This document shows, piece by piece, positions 8,443-47,274 of a stretch of DNA of 64,000 nt. Source of the stretch: a phage; sequence record PZ179883.1; one strand, written 5' to 3'. How positions within the stretch are numbered: the stretch's first letter is position 1; each line of letters starts with the position of its first letter. The notes under the pieces were generated by a model. The model did not search any database, was not told the DNA's origin, and saw nothing but the letters and a program-made list of their open reading frames with translations. The translations under genes and the position numbers were made by a program.

Positions 8443-9663
<1,221 letters not shown>

Positions 9664-9667
<4 letters not shown>

Positions 9668-9894
9668 TTATTTTTCTCAACCAATGATTGAATATAATCA
9701 TGCAGATCTTTAGATGCTTTACCCCATTTATTTTGGTATTCATTTTTAAGATTAGCCCGAGATTGAGCTAATAAAACATCATTAGTTGGAGGTAAAGATT
9801 CTAATCGTTGAATCTGACGTCCATAAATCATTGCAGCCATCTCTGATTCATAAATCAATCCTTTGAGATGTTCAAATTGATGCCATGAAATCAT
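9664..9894 (-). CDS. hypothetical protein
   Basis: 76-aa ORF. Confidence 0.45.
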
Positions 9895-10190
9895 TTACAT
9901 TTATCCTCTTTTAGCTCTTGACGATAATAACATATCATAGTTTTTTGGTCATGTACATATCGTTTTACATCATTAAGCCAAATACGAAATTCCTGGGAAT
10001 CTTCAAATGGCATACCGACCCAAGCTTTACCATCAATAACTTTAACTTGCCAAGATAGTTTAGCTTCATCATATGACTTTATTTGCACAGGCCAATTAGG
10101 ATGAACTGTTTCTTTCTTTACTTCTAGAGGCTTTGTCGAACAACCAACTAGAAGACCAATAGATAATATTACTGCTGATAGTTTAATCAT
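9891..10190 (-). CDS. putative lipoprotein
   Basis: Signal peptide followed by lipobox-like LVGC (MIKLSAVILSIGLLVGCS). Confidence 0.5.
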   Translation of the reverse strand: MIKLSAVILSIGLLVGCSTKPLEVKKETVHPNWPVQIKSYDEAKLSWQVKVIDGKAWVGMPFEDSQEFRIWLNDVKRYVHDQKTMICYYRQELKEDKCK

Positions 10191-12712: not shown

Positions 12713-13882
12713 TTAAAAGTATTTTTTAAAACTCATCATAACTTTATCATCAACATCATTATCAATCTGTGCAACAAGATAAGATGACAGTTCTACTTCT
12801 TGTGGCGCTGATTGAACATTATCAGAATTAAGATATTCACGAATCCAAGGATATGGATGTTTAACCGGAGCATCGGTAATTGGGCATGGAAGACCGCACT
12901 GTTTCATACGAGATACAGTTAAGTAATCAATAAAGCTCCACATGCTATTTGTATTTAATCCAGGAACATCACCATCTTTAAATAAATGAACCGCCCAGTC
13001 TTTTTCTTGGCGGTTAACTTCCATGAAAATATCAACTGCTTCTTGTTCACACTCTTGAGCAATTTTAACCCATTCATCACCATCAGTGCCAAGTTGAAGT
13101 TGACGAATAATATATTGGGTGCCTTTAAGGTGAAGTTGCTCATCACGAGCAATGAACTTCATAATCTTGGCATTACCTTCCATGATTTCCATGTTCTTAT
13201 GGAAGTTAAAGGTACATGCGAAAGATACATAAAAACGAATAGCTTCCAATGCGTTGATTACGTGCAGGCAGAGGTAAAGAGATTTCATTAGTGCTCGTTT
13301 AGTACATTCAACAACTTTGCCTAACTCTTCTTTACGAAATCCTTCTGATAAAATTCCTTCATAATCTTCAACCGCATTCTGATATTCACGAGTCTTAACT
13401 AGAACGTCATCATAATAACGACCAATAGATTCAGCACGTTTCATGATAGCTTTATCTAATACAATCTCATCAAATACCTTTGATGGATCAGTATAAAGAT
13501 TTCGCATAATATGAGTATATGAACGGCTGTGAATAGTTTCACTAAAAGTCCATGTAGCAACCCATGTATCAAGACTTGGGTCTGAAATTAACGACATAAG
13601 TACAGCAGACGGTGCACGACCCTGAATGCTATCCAAAAGTGATTGATACTTCAGGTTATTAGTAAAAATATCTTGCTGATACTGAGGAAGCTTGTTAAAT
13701 TGTGCAGCATCCATCATCAAGTTTACTTCTTCAGGACGCCAGAAAAATGACAACTGCTTTTCGGTTAAATCTTCAAAAACTTTATGACGTTGAATATCGT
13801 AACGCGCAATACCAAGACCTGAACCGAAGAACATAGGTTCTTTTAAAACATCAACTGGATTTGTATTAAAAACTGTGCTCAT
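12713..13882 (-). CDS. nrdB: ribonucleotide reductase small subunit, uninterrupted
   Basis: Continuous 389-aa ORF with di-iron/tyrosyl-radical R2 features; no intron, unlike T4. Confidence 0.9.
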   Translation of the reverse strand: MSTVFNTNPVDVLKEPMFFGSGLGIARYDIQRHKVFEDLTEKQLSFFWRPEEVNLMMDAAQFNKLPQYQQDIFTNNLKYQSLLDSIQGRAPSAVLMSLISDPSLDTWVATWTFSETIHSRSYTHIMRNLYTDPSKVFDEIVLDKAIMKRAESIGRYYDDVLVKTREYQNAVEDYEGILSEGFRKEELGKVVECTKRALMKSLYLCLHVINALEAIRFYVSFACTFNFHKNMEIMEGNAKIMKFIARDEQLHLKGTQYIIRQLQLGTDGDEWVKIAQECEQEAVDIFMEVNRQEKDWAVHLFKDGDVPGLNTNSMWSFIDYLTVSRMKQCGLPCPITDAPVKHPYPWIREYLNSDNVQSAPQEVELSSYLVAQIDNDVDDKVMMSFKKYF

Positions 13883-13933
13883 AAATTTTCCGCTTAGTTA
13901 ATAGATAGTGACTCGTCCATGAGTCAAATTATA

Positions 13934-16198
13934 TCATAATTTACAGGATGAACAATCTTCAGCTTTTGGAGTTTCTATTTCATAATCATCAGTACCAGAA
14001 CCATCACGGGTATTATGATAATAGAAATTTTTTCCGCCAAAATACCAAAAATACAAAAGGTCATCAATCATTATTGACATTGGAACCTTTCCTTTTGGAA
14101 AAATCTGCGGGTCATAATATGTATTCGCTGAAGCTGATTGACATACCCATTTCAGCATAATAGCTACTTGCGTAAGATAAGGTTTATTACCTTTCTTAGC
14201 TAATTTCCATGTATAATCATAGAGGTCTATGTTATGTTCAATATTGGGCACGACTTGATTAAAGGAACCCTCTTTTGATTCTTTAACCGAGACTGGTCCA
14301 CGTGGAGGCTCGATACCGTTTGTACTGTTAGAAACTTGGGAAGATGACTCACATGGCATAAGTGCTGATAATGTGCTATTACGGATGCCAAAGAGCTTAA
14401 GGTCTTCCCGCAGCGCCGACCAGTCACAAACGTATTTTGGAGCTGCGATTTGGTCAATCTTTTTATTGTACCAGTCGATAGGTAATTCGCCTCGAGACCA
14501 ACGAGTGTCTGAATAATATTCGCAAGGTCCTTTTTCTTTGGCGAGCTTAATGGATGCTTTAATGAGTCCATACTGTAATCTCTCAAATAGTTCATGTGTT
14601 AAATCGTTAGCATCTTCATAAGAAGCAAAGTTACTTGCCAGCCAAGCTGCATAGTTGGTAACACCTACACCAAGATTTCGACGCTTTTTAGCTTTTTCTG
14701 CTTCAGGAACTGGATATCCTTGGTAATCCAAAAGATTATCAAGAGCGCGAACTTGAACTTCTGCTAATTCATTAATTTTATCTTGGTCTTGCCAATCGAA
14801 GTTATCCAACACAAATGCAGATAACGTGCACAATCCAATTTCAGCATCAGGACTATTCACATCATTTGTTGGAATAGCAATTTCACAGCACAAGTTACTC
14901 TGACGAATAGGTGCCTTTTCACGAATAAATGGAGTATAGTTATTCGTATTATCAATGAACTGCACATAAATCCTTGCTGTTCCTGAACGTTCAGTCATGA
15001 GCAATTCAAATAGTTCACGGGCTTTAATACGCTTTTTACGAATATTAGGGTCTTTTTCTGCTGCTTCGTATAATTCACGGAAACGGTCTTGGTCTTTAAA
15101 ATAAGAATAATAAAGTTCGCCACCCATTTCATGCGGACTAAACAAAGTAATGTAATCGTTCTTTCCGAATCGTTCCATCATTAGGTCATTCAGCTGAACA
15201 CCATAATCCATATGACGGATACGGTTTTCTTCTACACCTTTGTTATTTTTCAAAACGAGAAGATTTTCAACTTCCAAATGCCAAATAGGATAATAAGCAG
15301 TAGCAGCGCCGCCACGAATTCCGCCCTGTGAACATGATTTAACAGCAGTCTGAAAATGTTTCCAAAAAGGAATAACACCAGTATGACGCACTTCACCTGT
15401 GCCAATCTTAGAACCTTCGGCACGAATCATACCAACGTTAATGCCGATTCCAGCTCGTTTAGAAATATACTCAACAATTGAAGCAGAAGCCTTATTGATA
15501 GACTTCAGCGAATCACCTGCCTCAATAACAACGCATGAACTAAATTGCCGAGTTGGAGTACGACATCCAGCCATAATAGGAGTTGGCAGTGAAATCTGTC
15601 GAGTAGATACTGCTTCATAAAAACGAATAACATGTTTTAATCTGTCAACAGGTTCATCTTGATGCAATGCCATTCCAATAGTCATAAATGCAAACTGTGG
15701 AGTTTCATAAATTTGACCAGTGGTTTTATCTTTAACGAGATATTTTTCTTTTAATTGCATCGCCCCGGAATAAGTAAATTCCATATCCCGCTCGTGCTTA
15801 ATTTTTGATTCTAAAAATGTAATTTCTTCTGCAGAATATTTTGACAACAATTCAGGGTCGTATTTACCTTCATTTACACAGTAAGAAATATGGTCAATAA
15901 ATGAACGGGGCTCATACTGTCCGTACACATGTTTACGAAGAGCAAACATTAAACAACGTGCAGCTACATATTGGTAATCAGGCTCTTCAACTGAAATAGA
16001 ATTCGCAGCAGCCTTAATTACAATGGTTTGAATGTCATCAGTGGTCATTCCATCACGGAGATATGATTTAATATTTTCATATAATTCATAAGGATCTACA
16101 GATGTTCCTTCAGCTGCCCAAGATAAAACTTTAATAATTTTTTGTGGATCAAAGCTCTGAGAAACACCACTACTTTTGATAACATTAATTAATTGCAT
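13934..16198 (-). CDS. nrdA: ribonucleotide reductase large subunit
   Basis: 754-aa ORF, class Ia R1 with C-terminal CxxC tail; length equals T4 NrdA. Confidence 0.9.
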   Translation of the reverse strand: MQLINVIKSSGVSQSFDPQKIIKVLSWAAEGTSVDPYELYENIKSYLRDGMTTDDIQTIVIKAAANSISVEEPDYQYVAARCLMFALRKHVYGQYEPRSFIDHISYCVNEGKYDPELLSKYSAEEITFLESKIKHERDMEFTYSGAMQLKEKYLVKDKTTGQIYETPQFAFMTIGMALHQDEPVDRLKHVIRFYEAVSTRQISLPTPIMAGCRTPTRQFSSCVVIEAGDSLKSINKASASIVEYISKRAGIGINVGMIRAEGSKIGTGEVRHTGVIPFWKHFQTAVKSCSQGGIRGGAATAYYPIWHLEVENLLVLKNNKGVEENRIRHMDYGVQLNDLMMERFGKNDYITLFSPHEMGGELYYSYFKDQDRFRELYEAAEKDPNIRKKRIKARELFELLMTERSGTARIYVQFIDNTNNYTPFIREKAPIRQSNLCCEIAIPTNDVNSPDAEIGLCTLSAFVLDNFDWQDQDKINELAEVQVRALDNLLDYQGYPVPEAEKAKKRRNLGVGVTNYAAWLASNFASYEDANDLTHELFERLQYGLIKASIKLAKEKGPCEYYSDTRWSRGELPIDWYNKKIDQIAAPKYVCDWSALREDLKLFGIRNSTLSALMPCESSSQVSNSTNGIEPPRGPVSVKESKEGSFNQVVPNIEHNIDLYDYTWKLAKKGNKPYLTQVAIMLKWVCQSASANTYYDPQIFPKGKVPMSIMIDDLLYFWYFGGKNFYYHNTRDGSGTDDYEIETPKAEDCSSCKL

Positions 16199-16515
16199 AA
16201 GTCCTCAACTTGAAAATCGTCTTTAAACAATCGGTTAACTATATGAGCTATTATATCACCATGACACGGCTTTGGTTTACATGTGCATCCTAGCCTCATT
16301 CCACGTAAAGGCTCTAAATGTGCTTTAGTTATTTCTCCGGATTTAATTCGACGTATAAAATCTTTTTTGAATAATTCAATGGCAGCCTCCCGGCTGCCAG
16401 CATCTTTACCGACGTAATTTCCCCAAAATGTACCACGGTGAATATTAACATCAAAGTCGGATTTATATTTATTCACTACTTGGCATAGACGGCCCGCGCG
16501 GTGATAATTCGTCAT
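16189..16515 (-). CDS. hypothetical Cys-rich protein
   Basis: 108-aa ORF with [11 protein letters not shown] cluster; overlaps nrdA start by 10 nt. Confidence 0.45.
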
Positions 16516-16732
16516 ATTGTTTTTCCGTTAAAACAGTAATATCATAGTAACAATCTGAAGAAGTTTTAACTGTAGAAATTTTATTATCAAAATACTCACG
16601 AGTCATTTTATGAGTATAATATTTTTTGCCATAAATGATAATAGGCTGATTTGGTCCTGGAACTTCTAACTCACTTGGGTTAGGAAGTGTAAAAAGAACT
16701 GCACCAGAAGTATCTTTAAATCGTAAAATCAT
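16469..16732 (-). CDS. hypothetical protein
   Basis: 87-aa ORF; overlaps the next ORF by 47 nt so the boundaries are uncertain. Confidence 0.4.
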
Positions 16733-16755
16733 ATATCCTCACAGTTAATAATTAA

Positions 16756-17067
16756 TTACACCGCCATTTTTCCTTTAATAGGAGGGTGTGATTCGTAACC
16801 TTTAAGAACGAAATCTTTAGGCCTGAGTTTAAGAACATATTCCAATTGTTCTTTAGTAGAAAGATAGCGGAATTTATAAGGCAATCCGCCTATTACCAGT
16901 TCACAAAGCTCTTTAGGTTCACGACGCAAAATTTCTTTACATTGTTCTACGTGATTCATATAGATATGAGTATTACCGCCAGAAAATATCAAATCTCCTG
17001 GAATAAGATTACACATCTTAGCTACAATATGAACTAATGCAGCATATGATGCAATATTAAATGGAAG
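16756..17067 (-). CDS. td: thymidylate synthase, exon 2
   Basis: Exon 2 starts at CTT 17065-17067 (LPFNIASYA...), directly after the intron's terminal G at 17068. Confidence 0.9.
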   Translation of the reverse strand, partial: LPFNIASYAALVHIVAKMCNLIPGDLIFSGGNTHIYMNHVEQCKEILRREPKELCELVIGGLPYKFRYLSTKEQLEYVLKLRPKDFVLKGYESHPPIKGKMAV

Positions 17068-18083
17068 CATTATGTTCAGATAAGGTCGTTAATCTTACCC
17101 CGGAATTATATCCAGCTGCATGTCACCATACAGATCAGACTATATCTCCATCTTGATGAAGCAAGATGTCTATCGTTTCGAGTCACTTGACCCTACTCCC
17201 CAAAGGGATAGTCGTTAGGCATTTATGTAGAACCAATTCCATTTATCAGATTTTACACGATAAGTAACTAATCCAGACGAAATTTTAAAATGTCTAGCTG
17301 CATCTGCTGCACAATCAAAAATAACCCCATCACATGAAATCTTTTTAATATTACTAGGCTTTTTACCTTTCATCTTTTCTGATATTTTAGATTTAGTTAT
17401 GTCTGAATGCTTATGATTAAAGAATGAATTATTTTCACCTGAACGATTTCTGCATTTACTACAAGTATAAGCAGAAGTTTGTATGCGAACACCGCACTTA
17501 CAAAACTTATGGGTTTCTGGATTCCAACGCCCGTTTTTACTTCCGGGTTTACTGTAAAGAGCTTTCCGACCATCAGGTCCAAGTTTAAGCATCTTAGCTT
17601 TAACAGTTTCAGAACGTTTCTTAATAATTTCTTCTTTTAATGGATGCGTAGAACATGTATCACCAAACGTTGCATCAGCAATATTGTATCCATTAATTTT
17701 AGAATTAAGCTCTTTAATCCAAAAATTTTCTCGTTCAATAATCAAATCTTTCTCATATGGAATTTCTTCCAAAATAGAACATTCAAACACATTACCATGT
17801 TTGTTAAAAGACCTCTGAAGCTTTATAGAAGAATGGCATCCTTTTTCTAAATCTTTAAAATGCCTCTTCCATCTCTTTTCAAAATCTTTAGCACTTCCTA
17901 CATATACTTTATTGTTTAAAGTATTTTTAATCTGATAAATTCCGCTTTTCATAAATACCTCTTTAAATATAGAAGTATTTATTAAAGGGCAGTCCTACAA
18001 TTTAGCACGGGATTGTCTACTAGAGAGGTCCCCCGTTTAGATAGATTACAAGTATAAGTCACCTTATACTCAGGCCTCAATTA
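17068..18083 (-). mobile_element. self-splicing group I intron in td carrying the I-TevI homing endonuclease
   Basis: 1016 nt between td exons; intron starts with the in-frame UAA directly after exon 1 GGU and ends ...AUG; internal GIY-YIG ORF. Confidence 0.9.
17215..17952 (-). CDS. I-TevI intron-encoded GIY-YIG homing endonuclease
   Basis: 245-aa ORF MKSGIYQIKNTLNNKVYVGSAKDFEKRWKRH... with GIY-YIG motif and C-terminal zinc finger/DNA-binding region. Confidence 0.9.
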   Translation of the reverse strand: MKSGIYQIKNTLNNKVYVGSAKDFEKRWKRHFKDLEKGCHSSIKLQRSFNKHGNVFECSILEEIPYEKDLIIERENFWIKELNSKINGYNIADATFGDTCSTHPLKEEIIKKRSETVKAKMLKLGPDGRKALYSKPGSKNGRWNPETHKFCKCGVRIQTSAYTCSKCRNRSGENNSFFNHKHSDITKSKISEKMKGKKPSNIKKISCDGVIFDCAADAARHFKISSGLVTYRVKSDKWNWFYINA

Positions 18084-19219
<1,136 letters not shown>

Positions 19220-19462
19220 TCAAACAGACTTTTTCACAATTTTCCAATCAGCTTTAAACTGTTCAACGTCAGAATGATAAATCCAGAATCCTGCGCTTTC
19301 TCCATCCTCATAAAGAGGGCATCCATCGCATTCATCTTCCCATCCCATATCACGTAAAAGATGTTCGGCTTTTTCAACGAGATCAGAATCTTTACCGATG
19401 ATATTAAAATACCATTTACCTTTAACTTCTGAATCTTTGATGCTCTGACGTTGTAATCTCAT
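19220..19462 (-). CDS. hypothetical protein (frd.1 position)
   Basis: Start placed at the internal ATG 19460-19462 with GGAG RBS, because an early-promoter motif lies inside the longer track ORF. Confidence 0.45.
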   Translation of the reverse strand: MRLQRQSIKDSEVKGKWYFNIIGKDSDLVEKAEHLLRDMGWEDECDGCPLYEDGESAGFWIYHSDVEQFKADWKIVKKSV

Positions 19463-19487
19463 TTTATTCTCCTTAGTTGATAAGGCT

Positions 19488-19516
19488 ATAGTATCACTAC
19501 CATAGCCCGTTGTAAA
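19488..19516 (-). promoter_or_regulatory. early promoter (T4-type sigma-70)
   Basis: Minus strand: GTTTACA, 17 nt, TACTAT preceded by TGG. Confidence 0.5.
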
Positions 19517-19519
19517 CAA

Positions 19520-19780
19520 TTATTTTTGAATTTTATCGAGCCACTTACCAAGCTTAATCATTTCTTTAGTAGCCTTTTCCATACTTCTGAACTTAACCAA
19601 TAGAGGATAGGTATCGACACCCATAACTAAACTGGTTACAAGACTGTGTTCACCCACAAGCCATAACGAATACGTTTGAATATCGAGTCCGTAATTTCTG
19701 TCTTTATGGACCCGTACACCCATCACTTCAAATTTCTCACTAGCTTTTTCTACCGCATCCAGGAAATCATCTTTAGTCAT
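19520..19780 (-). CDS. hypothetical protein (frd.2 position)
   Basis: ORF trimmed to the second Met to remove a 41-nt overlap with the upstream ORF; start uncertain. Confidence 0.4.
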   Translation of the reverse strand: MTKDDFLDAVEKASEKFEVMGVRVHKDRNYGLDIQTYSLWLVGEHSLVTSLVMGVDTYPLLVKFRSMEKATKEMIKLGKWLDKIQK

Positions 19781-19781
19781 A

Positions 19782-20183
19782 TTAGGCCTTAAAAGTTTTT
19801 CGCAAAAGTTCAATGATTTCATCTACATTGTTTTCGTCTACAATGCAGTGAATTTTTGTTACGCCAGAAACCTTGTCTTCGACTTCATCTTCTTCAGAAG
19901 TCGGTTCTTTATACTCGCGGAAACAATAAAACTCTTCTTCACTAAGTTCAAAATAATCATCACCTATGCCATCATCATTATAGATTTCGCCATTAGCGCA
20001 AATGATTTCGGTTACATAATCAAAGCCATCTAAACTTGATATTGATTTAACTTCAAACCAACCGCCATTTTCTTGAATGATGCTGACCATATTAGCATTT
20101 GATGAACTAATATCAATGAAAGATTTAATACGGTGTGGATTTAACTCATATTTTTGCCGATTTCCATTTTTGATTTTCCTCAT
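19782..20183 (-). CDS. hypothetical acidic protein (frd.3 position)
   Basis: 133-aa ORF; no clear RBS so the start is uncertain. Confidence 0.4.
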   Translation of the reverse strand: MRKIKNGNRQKYELNPHRIKSFIDISSSNANMVSIIQENGGWFEVKSISSLDGFDYVTEIICANGEIYNDDGIGDDYFELSEEEFYCFREYKEPTSEEDEVEDKVSGVTKIHCIVDENNVDEIIELLRKTFKA

Positions 20184-21494: not shown

Positions 21495-21565
21495 TTTTAT
21501 TTTCCTTTTTAATTTAATTAACAGTTGGTGCTATGACGATGTATGACCTCATAGCTGGTCAGTGA
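21495..21565 (-). promoter_or_regulatory. gene 32 5' leader / candidate autoregulatory translational operator
   Basis: Leader contains UUAAUUAAAUUAAAAAGGAAAAUAAAAAUG, an A/U-rich unstructured tract before the RBS like the T4 gp32 operator. Confidence 0.45.
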
Positions 21566-21570
21566 GATAA

Positions 21571-21578
21571 TTATAATC
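21571..21578 (-). promoter_or_regulatory. late promoter TATAAATA upstream of gene 32
   Basis: Minus-strand TATAAATA in the 59-32 intergenic region. Confidence 0.5.
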
Positions 21579-21594
21579 TATTTATAATAAGCAA

Positions 21595-32698: not shown

Positions 32699-33481
32699 AT
32701 GGCAGTAGTTGGAGTTCCTGGCTGGATTGGAAGTTCAGCCGTAAATGAAACGGGCCAGCGCTGGATGAGTCAAGCAGCTGGTCAATTAAGATTGGGTGTT
32801 CCTTGCTGGATGAGTCAATTTGCAGGTCGCTCAAGAGAAATTATTCATACACTTGGAGCAGACCATAACTTCAACGGTCAATGGTTCCGAGATAGGTGTT
32901 TTGAGGCAGGTAGTACACCTATAGTGTTTAATATCACTGGAGATTTAGTATCATATTCTAAAGATGTTCCTTTATTCTTCATGTACGGAGATACACCGAA
33001 TGAATATGTTCAACTGAATATACACGGTGTAACGATGTATGGCCGTGGCGGGAATGGCGGTAGCAATAGTCCTGGCTCAGCTGGGGGTCATTGTATTCAA
33101 AATGATATTGGTGGGAGACTAAGAATTAATAATGGCGGAGCTATTGCTGGCGGCGGTGGCGGCGGCGGTGGCGGATATTATTCTCCTTTTTCACAAATGA
33201 GATTGACCTTTGGCGGTGGCGGCGGTCGTCCGTTTGGCGCTCCGGGCGGATCTATTGATATGCAATCAGGAGCAACTGCTGGTACTATTTCTGCGCCAGG
33301 CGCAGGGTCTGTGAACGGTATCTATAACGGCGGGTCTGGTGGTGAAGTTGGATCCGCAGGGGGTAGATGTAATATTCGTGGTCAAGGATATGAATACGAT
33401 GGCGGTGCTGCTGGTTATGCCGTCATAGGGTCTACACCGACATGGCAAAACGTTGGAGCAATATATGGTCCAAGAGTATAA
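32699..33481 (+). CDS. 38: gp38 receptor-recognising adhesin (T2/T6 type)
   Basis: 260-aa ORF with poly-glycine motifs ([16 protein letters not shown]) flanking variable segments; T4 gp38 is a 183-aa chaperone instead. Confidence 0.82.
33149..33226 (+). repeat. GGC/GGT glycine-codon simple repeats in gene 38
   Basis: GGCGGCGGTGGCGGCGGCGGTGGCGGA at 33149..33175 and GGCGGTGGCGGCGGT at 33212..33226. Confidence 0.7.
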
Positions 33482-45400: not shown

Positions 45401-47218
45401 CTACTGGCTCATCCATTCTTTACGAAGGTCAGCATTATCTCCCATGAGCATTTCAAAAAGCTCTTTCCAGTTCTCAGGAAGTTTAACAACATCATATACT
45501 GGATTTTGAATCATCTCACGATATTCAGATTTTTCCAAAGAGCCAAGTCCTTTAATATAACGGATGCTATGTTTAGGTAGAGCATCTTTAGCACTCTCAT
45601 ATTCAGCGACTGTATAAAACCATTCTTGTTTTTTACCAATCTGTGCGATGATTACAGGAGTTTTGACAAAGCGAATTCGTCCTTGCTCAAACAGTTCTGG
45701 CCAATTACTAAAAAATCCAAGCAGAGAAGGATAAATGCTTCCTAGACCATCATGGTCAGCATCAGTCATAATAGCAATATTATGATAATTCAAGTTTTCA
45801 GCTTTTTCACCGAGAACTAATCCAGTGATTGCGCAAATATCAAACAGTTCTTTGTTTTTAAGCATGTCAGCATATGACATACCCCAACTGTTGAGAACTT
45901 TACCACGTAATGGATAACCACCATGAAGTTCTTTATCACGAACATCAATAAGATATCCGATAGCAGAATCACCCTCAGTCAAGAAAAGAGTAGTGTCAGC
46001 ATCTTTACCGCAAAGATTCGCTTTAATATGTTTATGAACCTTAGCTTTAGAAGCCTTTTTAGCTGCTTTAGTTTCTGCTGCTTTTTCTGCCGCTAATTTA
46101 CGAGCCAAAGCAGCTTCAATAATTGGCATTAAAATTGCTTCATTATTTAGAATAGCACGTGAAATCTTTTTAGCATCAAGTTGAATATGACTACGGATTT
46201 CACCAAATGGAGAAGTCAAACGCTCTTTAGTTTGAGAATCAAATCGCATGTTTTTCATATCACGGACAAACATAACGATAGTCAAACATTCTTTAACGCG
46301 TGCTTTAGTCACATCAATTTTGAACTTACGTTTGATTTGTGGAATAAGGTCTTCACAAATATCATCCATAACACAGTCAATGTGATGGCCACCATTCTTA
46401 GTGTGAATGTTATTCACATAAGTTAATTGACGAAAACCATCCGGTGAACGACCAACCGCAATAGAGCAATTTTCTTGTTCTTGAACGATAGCATGCTCAT
46501 CATATTGGCGTGCATATTTCTTAAAATTGCCCTGAACCTTTTTACCATTAAAGGTAAATTGAATATCAGGATAAACTACTGCAAGTGTCTGGAGACGATC
46601 TAGTGTAATGTCAAGATAAACTTGGGACAGCTCATTAGTTTCAAATGACATAAAATCAGGAATGAAAGTAACACGAGTTCCTTTCCATTTTCCTGGAATA
46701 GTTTCCCATGATTTATTTTCCATGCCATTTGAACAACGAACTACAATATTATTTTGACCATCACCAGTTTCACCGACAAACATCACAGAAAAAATGTTTG
46801 TCAAACTAGAACCAACACCATTCATACCGCCAGTGACGCGTTCTTTATCATCACCAAAGTTACCGCCTGCTTTTGGAATAGTCCAGGCAGCAACAGGACC
46901 AGGAATTTCTTCACCAGTAGGTGTTTTAACCATCGCCTGTGGAATACCGCGACCGTTATCTTCAACTGTTACTTGATTGTTTTTAATAGTAACATTAATT
47001 TTATTTGCGAATTTAAACTTAGTACGAATACCTTCATCTACTGAGTTATCGATAATTTCATCAATAAGCTTAACAAGACCAGGTACATACTGAACACTTT
47101 CCCATTTACCAAACAGAAAGCGCTCATGCATTTCATTAGCGGAAGAGCCAATGTACATGCCGCTACGCTTTTTGATATGTTCAATATCGCTCAGAATTTT
47201 AATTTCATTCTTAATCAT
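45401..47218 (-). CDS. 39: DNA topoisomerase II large subunit gp39, uninterrupted (covers T4 genes 39 plus 60)
   Basis: Single 605-606 codon ORF with GHKL ATPase N-terminus and TOPRIM C-terminus; no stop, gap or bypass element. Confidence 0.9.
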   Translation of the reverse strand: MIKNEIKILSDIEHIKKRSGMYIGSSANEMHERFLFGKWESVQYVPGLVKLIDEIIDNSVDEGIRTKFKFANKINVTIKNNQVTVEDNGRGIPQAMVKTPTGEEIPGPVAAWTIPKAGGNFGDDKERVTGGMNGVGSSLTNIFSVMFVGETGDGQNNIVVRCSNGMENKSWETIPGKWKGTRVTFIPDFMSFETNELSQVYLDITLDRLQTLAVVYPDIQFTFNGKKVQGNFKKYARQYDEHAIVQEQENCSIAVGRSPDGFRQLTYVNNIHTKNGGHHIDCVMDDICEDLIPQIKRKFKIDVTKARVKECLTIVMFVRDMKNMRFDSQTKERLTSPFGEIRSHIQLDAKKISRAILNNEAILMPIIEAALARKLAAEKAAETKAAKKASKAKVHKHIKANLCGKDADTTLFLTEGDSAIGYLIDVRDKELHGGYPLRGKVLNSWGMSYADMLKNKELFDICAITGLVLGEKAENLNYHNIAIMTDADHDGLGSIYPSLLGFFSNWPELFEQGRIRFVKTPVIIAQIGKKQEWFYTVAEYESAKDALPKHSIRYIKGLGSLEKSEYREMIQNPVYDVVKLPENWKELFEMLMGDNADLRKEWMSQ

Positions 47219-47274
47219 CACTTATCCTCGTTTGGTTTCGGGAATATTATACTCCGGTAATCATAAAGCTAAAG

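Follow-up and report, generated by a model that had tools for sequence, protein, structure and literature searches.

The stretch of phage DNA analysed here (sequence record PZ179883.1; hereafter the window) is 64,000 nucleotides long, and at its td locus the thymidylate synthase gene lies in two pieces on either side of an interval that encloses an ORF for the homing endonuclease I-TevI (Table 1). The surrounding genes follow the T4 order (frd, td, nrdA.2, nrdA.1, nrdA, nrdB, denA, rnlA). The first-pass annotation of this sequence had described td as split after codon 183 by a 1016-nt element running from an in-frame UAA to a final G, a description that proved exact to the base and that left the minus strand unstated. 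The exon 1 ORF is terminated by the TAA at 18083..18081, as read from both the ORF listing and the sequence; the exon 2 frame reopens at 17067 (CTT CCA TTT AAT, encoding LPFN) and closes with its stop at 16756; and the intron ends in CAUAAUG, with the terminal G expected of a group I intron at 17068. The insertion point, GGT/CTN after td codon 183, is the same junction as in T4, and on the Pfam thymidylate synthase profile the first td piece covers positions 1-175 and the second 176-266, with no residue between them.

A 245-aa GIY-YIG homing endonuclease had also been proposed inside the element, and this holds. The inner ORF contains three I-TevI domains, PF01541 (GIY-YIG; E = 2e-18), PF22635 (I-TevI_ZnF; 1e-20) and PF20987 (I-TevI_DNA-bd; 3e-32), all of which scored above their Pfam cut-offs, and its protein is identical to T4 I-TevI at 245/245 residues. 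The start of the intron 3' core overlaps the 3' end of this ORF.

Table 1. Features of the td and nrdB loci (window coordinates).
Feature	Position	Strand	Details
td (thymidylate synthase) exon 1	18632..18084	-	183 codons; Pfam PF00303 profile 1-175, E = 2e-65
Dhakavirus-type patch in exon 1	18617..18141	-	td nt ~16-492
T4-type tract of exon 1	18131..18084	-	td nt 502-549; adjoins intron
I-TevI cleavage motif CAACG	18110..18106	-	in T4-type tract of exon 1
P1 exon strand CUUGGGU	18090..18084	-	in T4-type tract; last base U is the U·G wobble partner
td group I intron	18083..17068	-	1016 nt; UAA...AUG
Intron 5' core	18083..18000	-	internal guide sequence (P1 3' strand), P2, P3 5' strand, P4, P5, P6 5' strand
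12-bp hairpin over I-TevI Shine-Dalgarno and start codon	17982..17951	-	MFE fold of intron 61-160
I-TevI ORF	17952..17215	-	245 aa; in P6a loop
Intron 3' core	17225..17068	-	P6', P7, P7.1, P7.2, P3', P8, P7', P9, P9.2, terminal G
td exon 2	17067..16756	-	103 codons and stop; T4-type; Pfam PF00303 profile 176-266, E = 1e-24
nrdB	13882..12713	-	one uninterrupted ORF, 389 aa
nrdA-nrdB spacer	13883..13933		51 nt; lacks mobE and nrdB.1, both annotated here in T4
Dhakavirus td site, for comparison			CAGCGTTCTGTTGACGTGTTCTTAGGA/TTGCCATTTAATATC

Folding, relatives and probable mobility of the td intron

The assignment to group I is supported by the fold, in which all core helices pair and six pairs show compensatory changes. 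In P1, CUUGGGU pairs with GCCUGAG at 7/7 canonical positions, with a U(-1)·G9 wobble at the 5' splice site, and this wobble is invariant in six natural cores. P3 (UCUAUC with GAUAGA) is paired across the ORF, P7 is formed by GACUAU and AUAGUC, and pairing is canonical throughout P1, P2, P3, P4, P7, P7.1, P7.2, P8, P9 and P9.2 in the window. MFE folding recovered P2-P6, P7.1, P7.2, P8 and P9; P7 is missing from the MFE fold because P3 and P7 form a pseudoknot, which such folding cannot display, and it was placed by hand and verified by pair counts. We examined covariation in six distinct cores, those of the window, T4, T6, fFiEco06 (identical to the CJY920 core), ECO07P1 and Gelderlandvirus UoN_LG358_1. 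Across these cores 99.5% of cells pair, and the compensatory changes fall in P7.2, P8 (two), P9.2 (two) and P10. None of 500 shuffles reached the six-core result, and slid 3' partners gave 30-44% pairing. Covariation among six sequences only, with the structure drawn from the same sequences, is supporting evidence, short of independent proof.

An Rfam scan of the whole 64-kb window at gathering thresholds returned zero matches. When the scan was made permissive, RF00028 gave a partial match to the 3' half of the intron only (39.5 bits, E = 3e-8), in an alignment that pushed the 5' model positions onto ORF sequence. This score is low because the 738-nt ORF in the P6a loop splits the core. The ORF-less intron of phage CJY920, whose core differs from that of the window at 6 of 242 compared intron positions (alignment A1), reached 75.7 bits against the same model, for which the gathering score is 50. 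The covariance-model search proposed in the first-pass annotation therefore carries a wider lesson, in that scans at curated thresholds systematically miss ORF-bearing introns; this accounts for the many deposited genomes in which td is annotated as two genes. The finding serves as a useful annotation check, and the chimeric host gene described below lends it a modest natural-history aspect.

At window position 18030 the intron differs from T4 by an A54G change in J4/5, which docks P1 in other group I introns. We had considered this a private and possibly harmful change and dropped that view, given that the 61-nt stretch 18000..18060 is matched at 99% identity or better, in effect perfectly, by 33 phage records, TuIa among them; because of these matches, the change is probably tolerated. 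An exact match to the stretch bearing A54G was sought in IMG/VR, and none was found.

Divergence from T4 (NC_000866) is unequal along the gene: the intron differs at 9/1016 positions (0.9%; 1007 positions, or 99.1%, are identical), exon 1 at 136/549 (25%) and exon 2 at 26/312 (8%), as expected of a horizontally moving element. The 2-kb td region matches 681 phage records, nearly all of them T4-like phages of enterobacteria, and the best of these is ECO07P1 (97.9% identical). The td intron is at least 80% covered in ~197 phage records, with best matches at 99.4% identity. Among database records, td exon 1 alone has 100% matches; searches with the intron, with nrdB and with the 3' region of td turned up no identical record.

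The intron is itself mosaic, with a joint at 17225..17311, near the end of the ORF (16001..17310 versus 17311..18083). Its 5' core and ORF are of the T4/fFiEco06 type, and phage WL-3 is the closest match to its 3' core (with a U-A variant in P8), to exon 2 and to nrdA.2, differing at one position of the 3' core and at 6/312 nt of exon 2. The I-TevI ORF of WL-3 differs from that of the window at more than 30 positions. WL-3 also has a synonymous cluster at td nt 525-540, exactly over the I-TevI cleavage region (CGC TCA GTA GAT GTT changed to AGA AGT GTT GAC GTG), which retains the C...G of the CNNNG motif. We considered WL-3 (MT968995) as a carrier of an ORF-less intron and rejected it, the full intron being present in a poorly annotated record.

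Upstream of the endonuclease gene, a late-promoter/operator-like box, CCCTTTAATAAATAC, overlaps the 5' arm of the predicted I-TevI hairpin, and the sequence from intron position 93 to the I-TevI start codon is that of T4. In published work on td, a hairpin shuts off translation of I-TevI from early and middle transcripts; a late promoter immediately before the hairpin makes the ribosome-binding site accessible, and I-TevI represses its own expression through an operator that overlaps this promoter. The target of I-TevI spans 38 bp, and its cuts in intronless td fall upstream of the insertion site, at distances of 23 and 25 nt (PMC2988022). From sequence identity with T4, we infer that the hairpin, late promoter, operator and cleavage site have the same functions here, and splicing, endonuclease activity and regulation would likewise resemble those found in the T4 experiments in the literature.

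By this analogy, the last six exon bases would pair with the internal guide sequence, with the U·G wobble marking the splice site, the P3-P9 core would fold, and guanosine would attack the 5' splice site, the 3' splice site being set by the terminal G. Splicing would yield a 286-aa thymidylate synthase, and on unspliced RNA translation would end at the first codon of the intron, UAA. Translation of I-TevI, encoded in the P6a loop, would be blocked on early transcripts by the hairpin over its ribosome-binding site and freed on transcripts from the late promoter within the intron. In a mixed infection, I-TevI would bind intronless td at the insertion site and cut 23 and 25 nt upstream, and repair would copy the intron, together with neighbouring exon sequence, into the intronless allele.

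The split gene could also be read as a broken one, in which a free-standing endonuclease gene has separated td into two fragments and no working thymidylate synthase is produced. In related phages, automatic annotation lists the endonuclease apart from a pair of CDS that are both labelled 'thymidylate synthase', which would fit this reading, as would the silence of Rfam at its gathering threshold. However, the fragments adjoin to the residue in the Pfam profile, the sequences flanking the ORF make a complete group I core with covariation, and the intron is one that has been characterised by experiment in T4, making a broken gene exceedingly improbable. We also consider it very unlikely that the intron is a resident that splices but is immobile, with a defect in its endonuclease or in target recognition comparable to the truncated I-TevIII of the T4 nrdB intron. 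Loss of the endonuclease gene does happen in this lineage, as the natural ORF-less td intron of the sister phage CJY920 demonstrates, but in the window the ORF is full length, its protein is identical to the active T4 I-TevI, and the upstream regulatory sequence is that of T4 from intron position 93 on. The proposal of a mobile group I intron with I-TevI agrees with the T4 insertion site, the near-identity to the T4 intron and the pairing of the core helices, and we place the probability that the interval is a td group I intron of the T4 type, lying behind codon 183 of the thymidylate synthase gene of a Tequatrovirus, at roughly 0.94. None of these features arises by chance. The T4 annotation classes the td intron as group IA.

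Two sequence types within td

The resemblance of the td exons of the window to T4 is uneven along their length. The patch in exon 1 is ~97% identical to the Dhakaviruses IME341 and C6 and ~75% identical to T4, and upstream of it frd is T4-type. Exon 1 as a whole is matched at 100% identity by three records only (ECO07P1, ECO07P3 and CJY920); the next-best matches, at 95-86%, are Dhakaviruses (IME341, C6, IME08, JS98 and others), and ordinary T4-like phages fall in a band of 60-80% identity. To locate the change of type we used informative sites, defined as those separating T4 and fFiEco06 from IME341 and C6. Between td nt 54 and 492, 94 such sites agree with the Dhakaviruses, 2 agree with T4 and 1 with neither, and from td nt 502 to the end of the gene the corresponding numbers are 5, 70 and 1 (Fisher's exact test, before versus after the switch, p = 4e-39). 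The left edge of the patch coincides with the td start codon (nt -2 to +16/+30); its right edge lies between td nt 492 and 502, leaving 48-57 nt to the insertion site and 23-35 nt to the I-TevI cut. Judged by these sites, td is a patchwork of two genera, Dhakavirus-type and then T4-type, a feature absent from the first-pass annotation.

Two Dhakavirus-type synonymous bases, at td nt 528 and 531 (window 18105 and 18102), interrupt the T4-type tract just past the cut, 1 and 4 nt downstream of it, and Gelderlandvirus UoN_LG358_1 likewise holds recipient-type bases at td nt 529-530. These odd bases near the cut site may reflect patchy heteroduplex repair or simple polymorphism.

One explanation for the position of the joint is an exchange between genera triggered by the nuclease itself, in which I-TevI cut an intronless td of Dhakavirus type and the break was resolved by repair from, or crossover with, an intron-bearing allele of T4 type. 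We give this explanation slightly less than an even chance. The outcome, held with similar reserve and not quite at even odds, would be T4-type sequence that begins just upstream of the cut and continues through the intron and onward. Such an exchange complements the identification of the td intron and does not compete with it. The abruptness of the switch and its closeness to the cut site (94 Dhakavirus-type against 2 T4-type sites before, 70 against 5 in the opposite sense after) argue for it, as does the independent case of Gelderlandvirus UoN_LG358_1, which has Gelderland-type exons with T4-type sites only at td nt 522-546, beside the intron. Co-conversion of flanking exons in td homing is, moreover, established (PMC2988022). 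Pairing within P1 points the same way: exon 1 of Dhakaviruses ends in UUAGGA, with which P1 would be weaker and would lose its U·G wobble; a functional insertion thus needs donor-type exon bases. The end of the Gelderlandvirus exon 1, CUUGGU, would also remove or weaken the pairing with the guide GCCUGA. Finally, a search of 5.8 billion proteins for an unsplit counterpart of the spliced chimera found no thymidylate synthase above 91% identity, the top matches being ordinary T4-type enzymes, which indicates that the chimeric allele is known only with the intron (with the ORF in ECO07P1, ORF-less in CJY920).

Against a role of the nuclease, mosaic joints are frequent in this region: one coincides with the td start codon, another lies within the intron close to where the ORF ends, and there are patches in nrdB and upstream of frd. 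A joint ~50 nt from the intron could for this reason be a coincidence; the td joint may be ordinary mosaicism. The two Dhakavirus-type bases within the T4-type tract also count against a simple exchange, and four related genomes sharing one event reveal neither which step came first nor which way the DNA was transferred. With somewhat more doubt than conviction, we tentatively view the td joint as a preserved footprint of recombination between a Tequatrovirus and a Dhakavirus begun by I-TevI, in a lineage that, together with the sister phages ECO07P1 and CJY920, would display invasion, co-conversion and ORF loss in the wild. If this were true, td would provide a natural example of an intron nuclease driving exchange between phage genera, in which the exon bases required for P1 pairing must move together with the intron.

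Mosaicism and differences from T4 are also found elsewhere in the window. Two small ORFs upstream of frd (19220..19822, minus strand) are 85-89% identical to Dhakaviruses and largely missing from T4, forming a further patch of Dhakavirus affinity near td. There is no segG between genes 32 and 59 (21495..21594); T4 has homing endonuclease genes there and at mobE. One 606-aa ORF (45401..47221, minus strand) encodes the large topoisomerase subunit and has a TOPRIM C-terminal domain; the division into genes 39 and 60 seen in T4 appears to be absent from the window, as does the mobA insertion. At 32699..33481 (plus strand), gp38 is of a 260-aa adhesin type (Pfam GP38, Gp38_N), presumably the T2/T6 form and not the shorter T4 chaperone form.

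The empty nrdB site and comparison with known phages

The claim that nrdB is free of an intron was upheld, as the gene is a continuous ORF and its alignment with T4 nrdB contains a single gap of 598 nt, equal to the T4 intron, between 13216 and 13215. Neither the T4 nrdB intron (598 nt) nor the RB3 type (~1090 nt) was found in nrdB of the window, and the exon bases around the empty site differ from T4 at two positions. A divergent patch at nrdB nt 480-590 (window ~13290..13400) has ~40-55% identity to T4, T6 and fFiEco06, compared with 90-100% in the rest of nrdB, and it sits 80-190 nt upstream of the empty intron site.

The combination of an occupied td and an empty nrdB had been put forward as a strain signature and as a natural pair of occupied and empty homing sites. 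As a signature it is real and also ordinary, since T6 is in the same state, the td intron occurs in ~197 records and the T4 nrdB intron in ~118 phage records, with nrdB itself matching at least 626. The nrdB site is indeed empty, but the two sites do not form a matched pair, since td is the target of I-TevI and nrdB that of I-TevIII or MobE. According to published work, mobility of the nrdB intron depends on I-TevIII, which is intact in RB3, or, in T4, on MobE, which nicks nrdB further upstream, in its 5' part (PMC1865063, PMC2790892). I-TevI plays no role at the empty site.

Among known phages, T4 provides a close parallel. Its td/I-TevI locus (NC_000866, td 143235..145112) has the same gene, insertion site, I-TevI protein, regulatory hairpin and operator-like box. 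The T4 td intron has been known since the 1980s; the element in the window is that intron, and it adds nothing to what is known of T4. A survey of such introns in T-even-like phages was reportedly published by Sandegren and Sjöberg in J Biol Chem in 2004. In addition to A54G, the window differs from T4 in an intron one base shorter (like T6, it lacks a T near intron position 92), in a compensatory A-U to U-A change in P8 with two loop changes, in one C-G to U·G change in P9, and in an exon 1 that is only 75% identical.

Close relatives at the td locus are ECO07P1 and ECO07P3 (OP172784/6) and CJY920 (PQ349265), whose identity to exon 1 of the window includes the Dhakavirus-type patch. ECO07P1 has a td intron with the I-TevI ORF, like the window, and ECO07P3 is annotated alike; divergence of ECO07P1 from the window begins at the intron and extends downstream, and its nrdB is interrupted, unlike that of the window. 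The td intron of CJY920 (8550..8803 of PQ349265) is 254 nt long and ORF-less, with a short P6a hairpin, GUUC-UUUU-GAAC, in place of the ORF-bearing loop. About 1 kb downstream of this intron and on the opposite strand, CJY920 9766..10104 has 70% DNA identity to the 5' third of the I-TevI ORF (window 17617..17952), and this stretch may be a free-standing relative. In a different genus, Gelderlandvirus UoN_LG358_1 (OK570374, 1092..2964) carries a td intron of 1012 nt with a 243-aa ORF at the same site.

With respect to nrdB, the window can be compared with T6 and T2. T6 (MH550421) also combines a td intron containing I-TevI with an uninterrupted nrdB, but it has mobE in its nrdA-nrdB interval and additional small ORFs separating frd from td; the window has neither. 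T2, the recipient in published crosses, has an intronless nrdB and lacks mobE (PMC2790892), which is the state of nrdB in the window.
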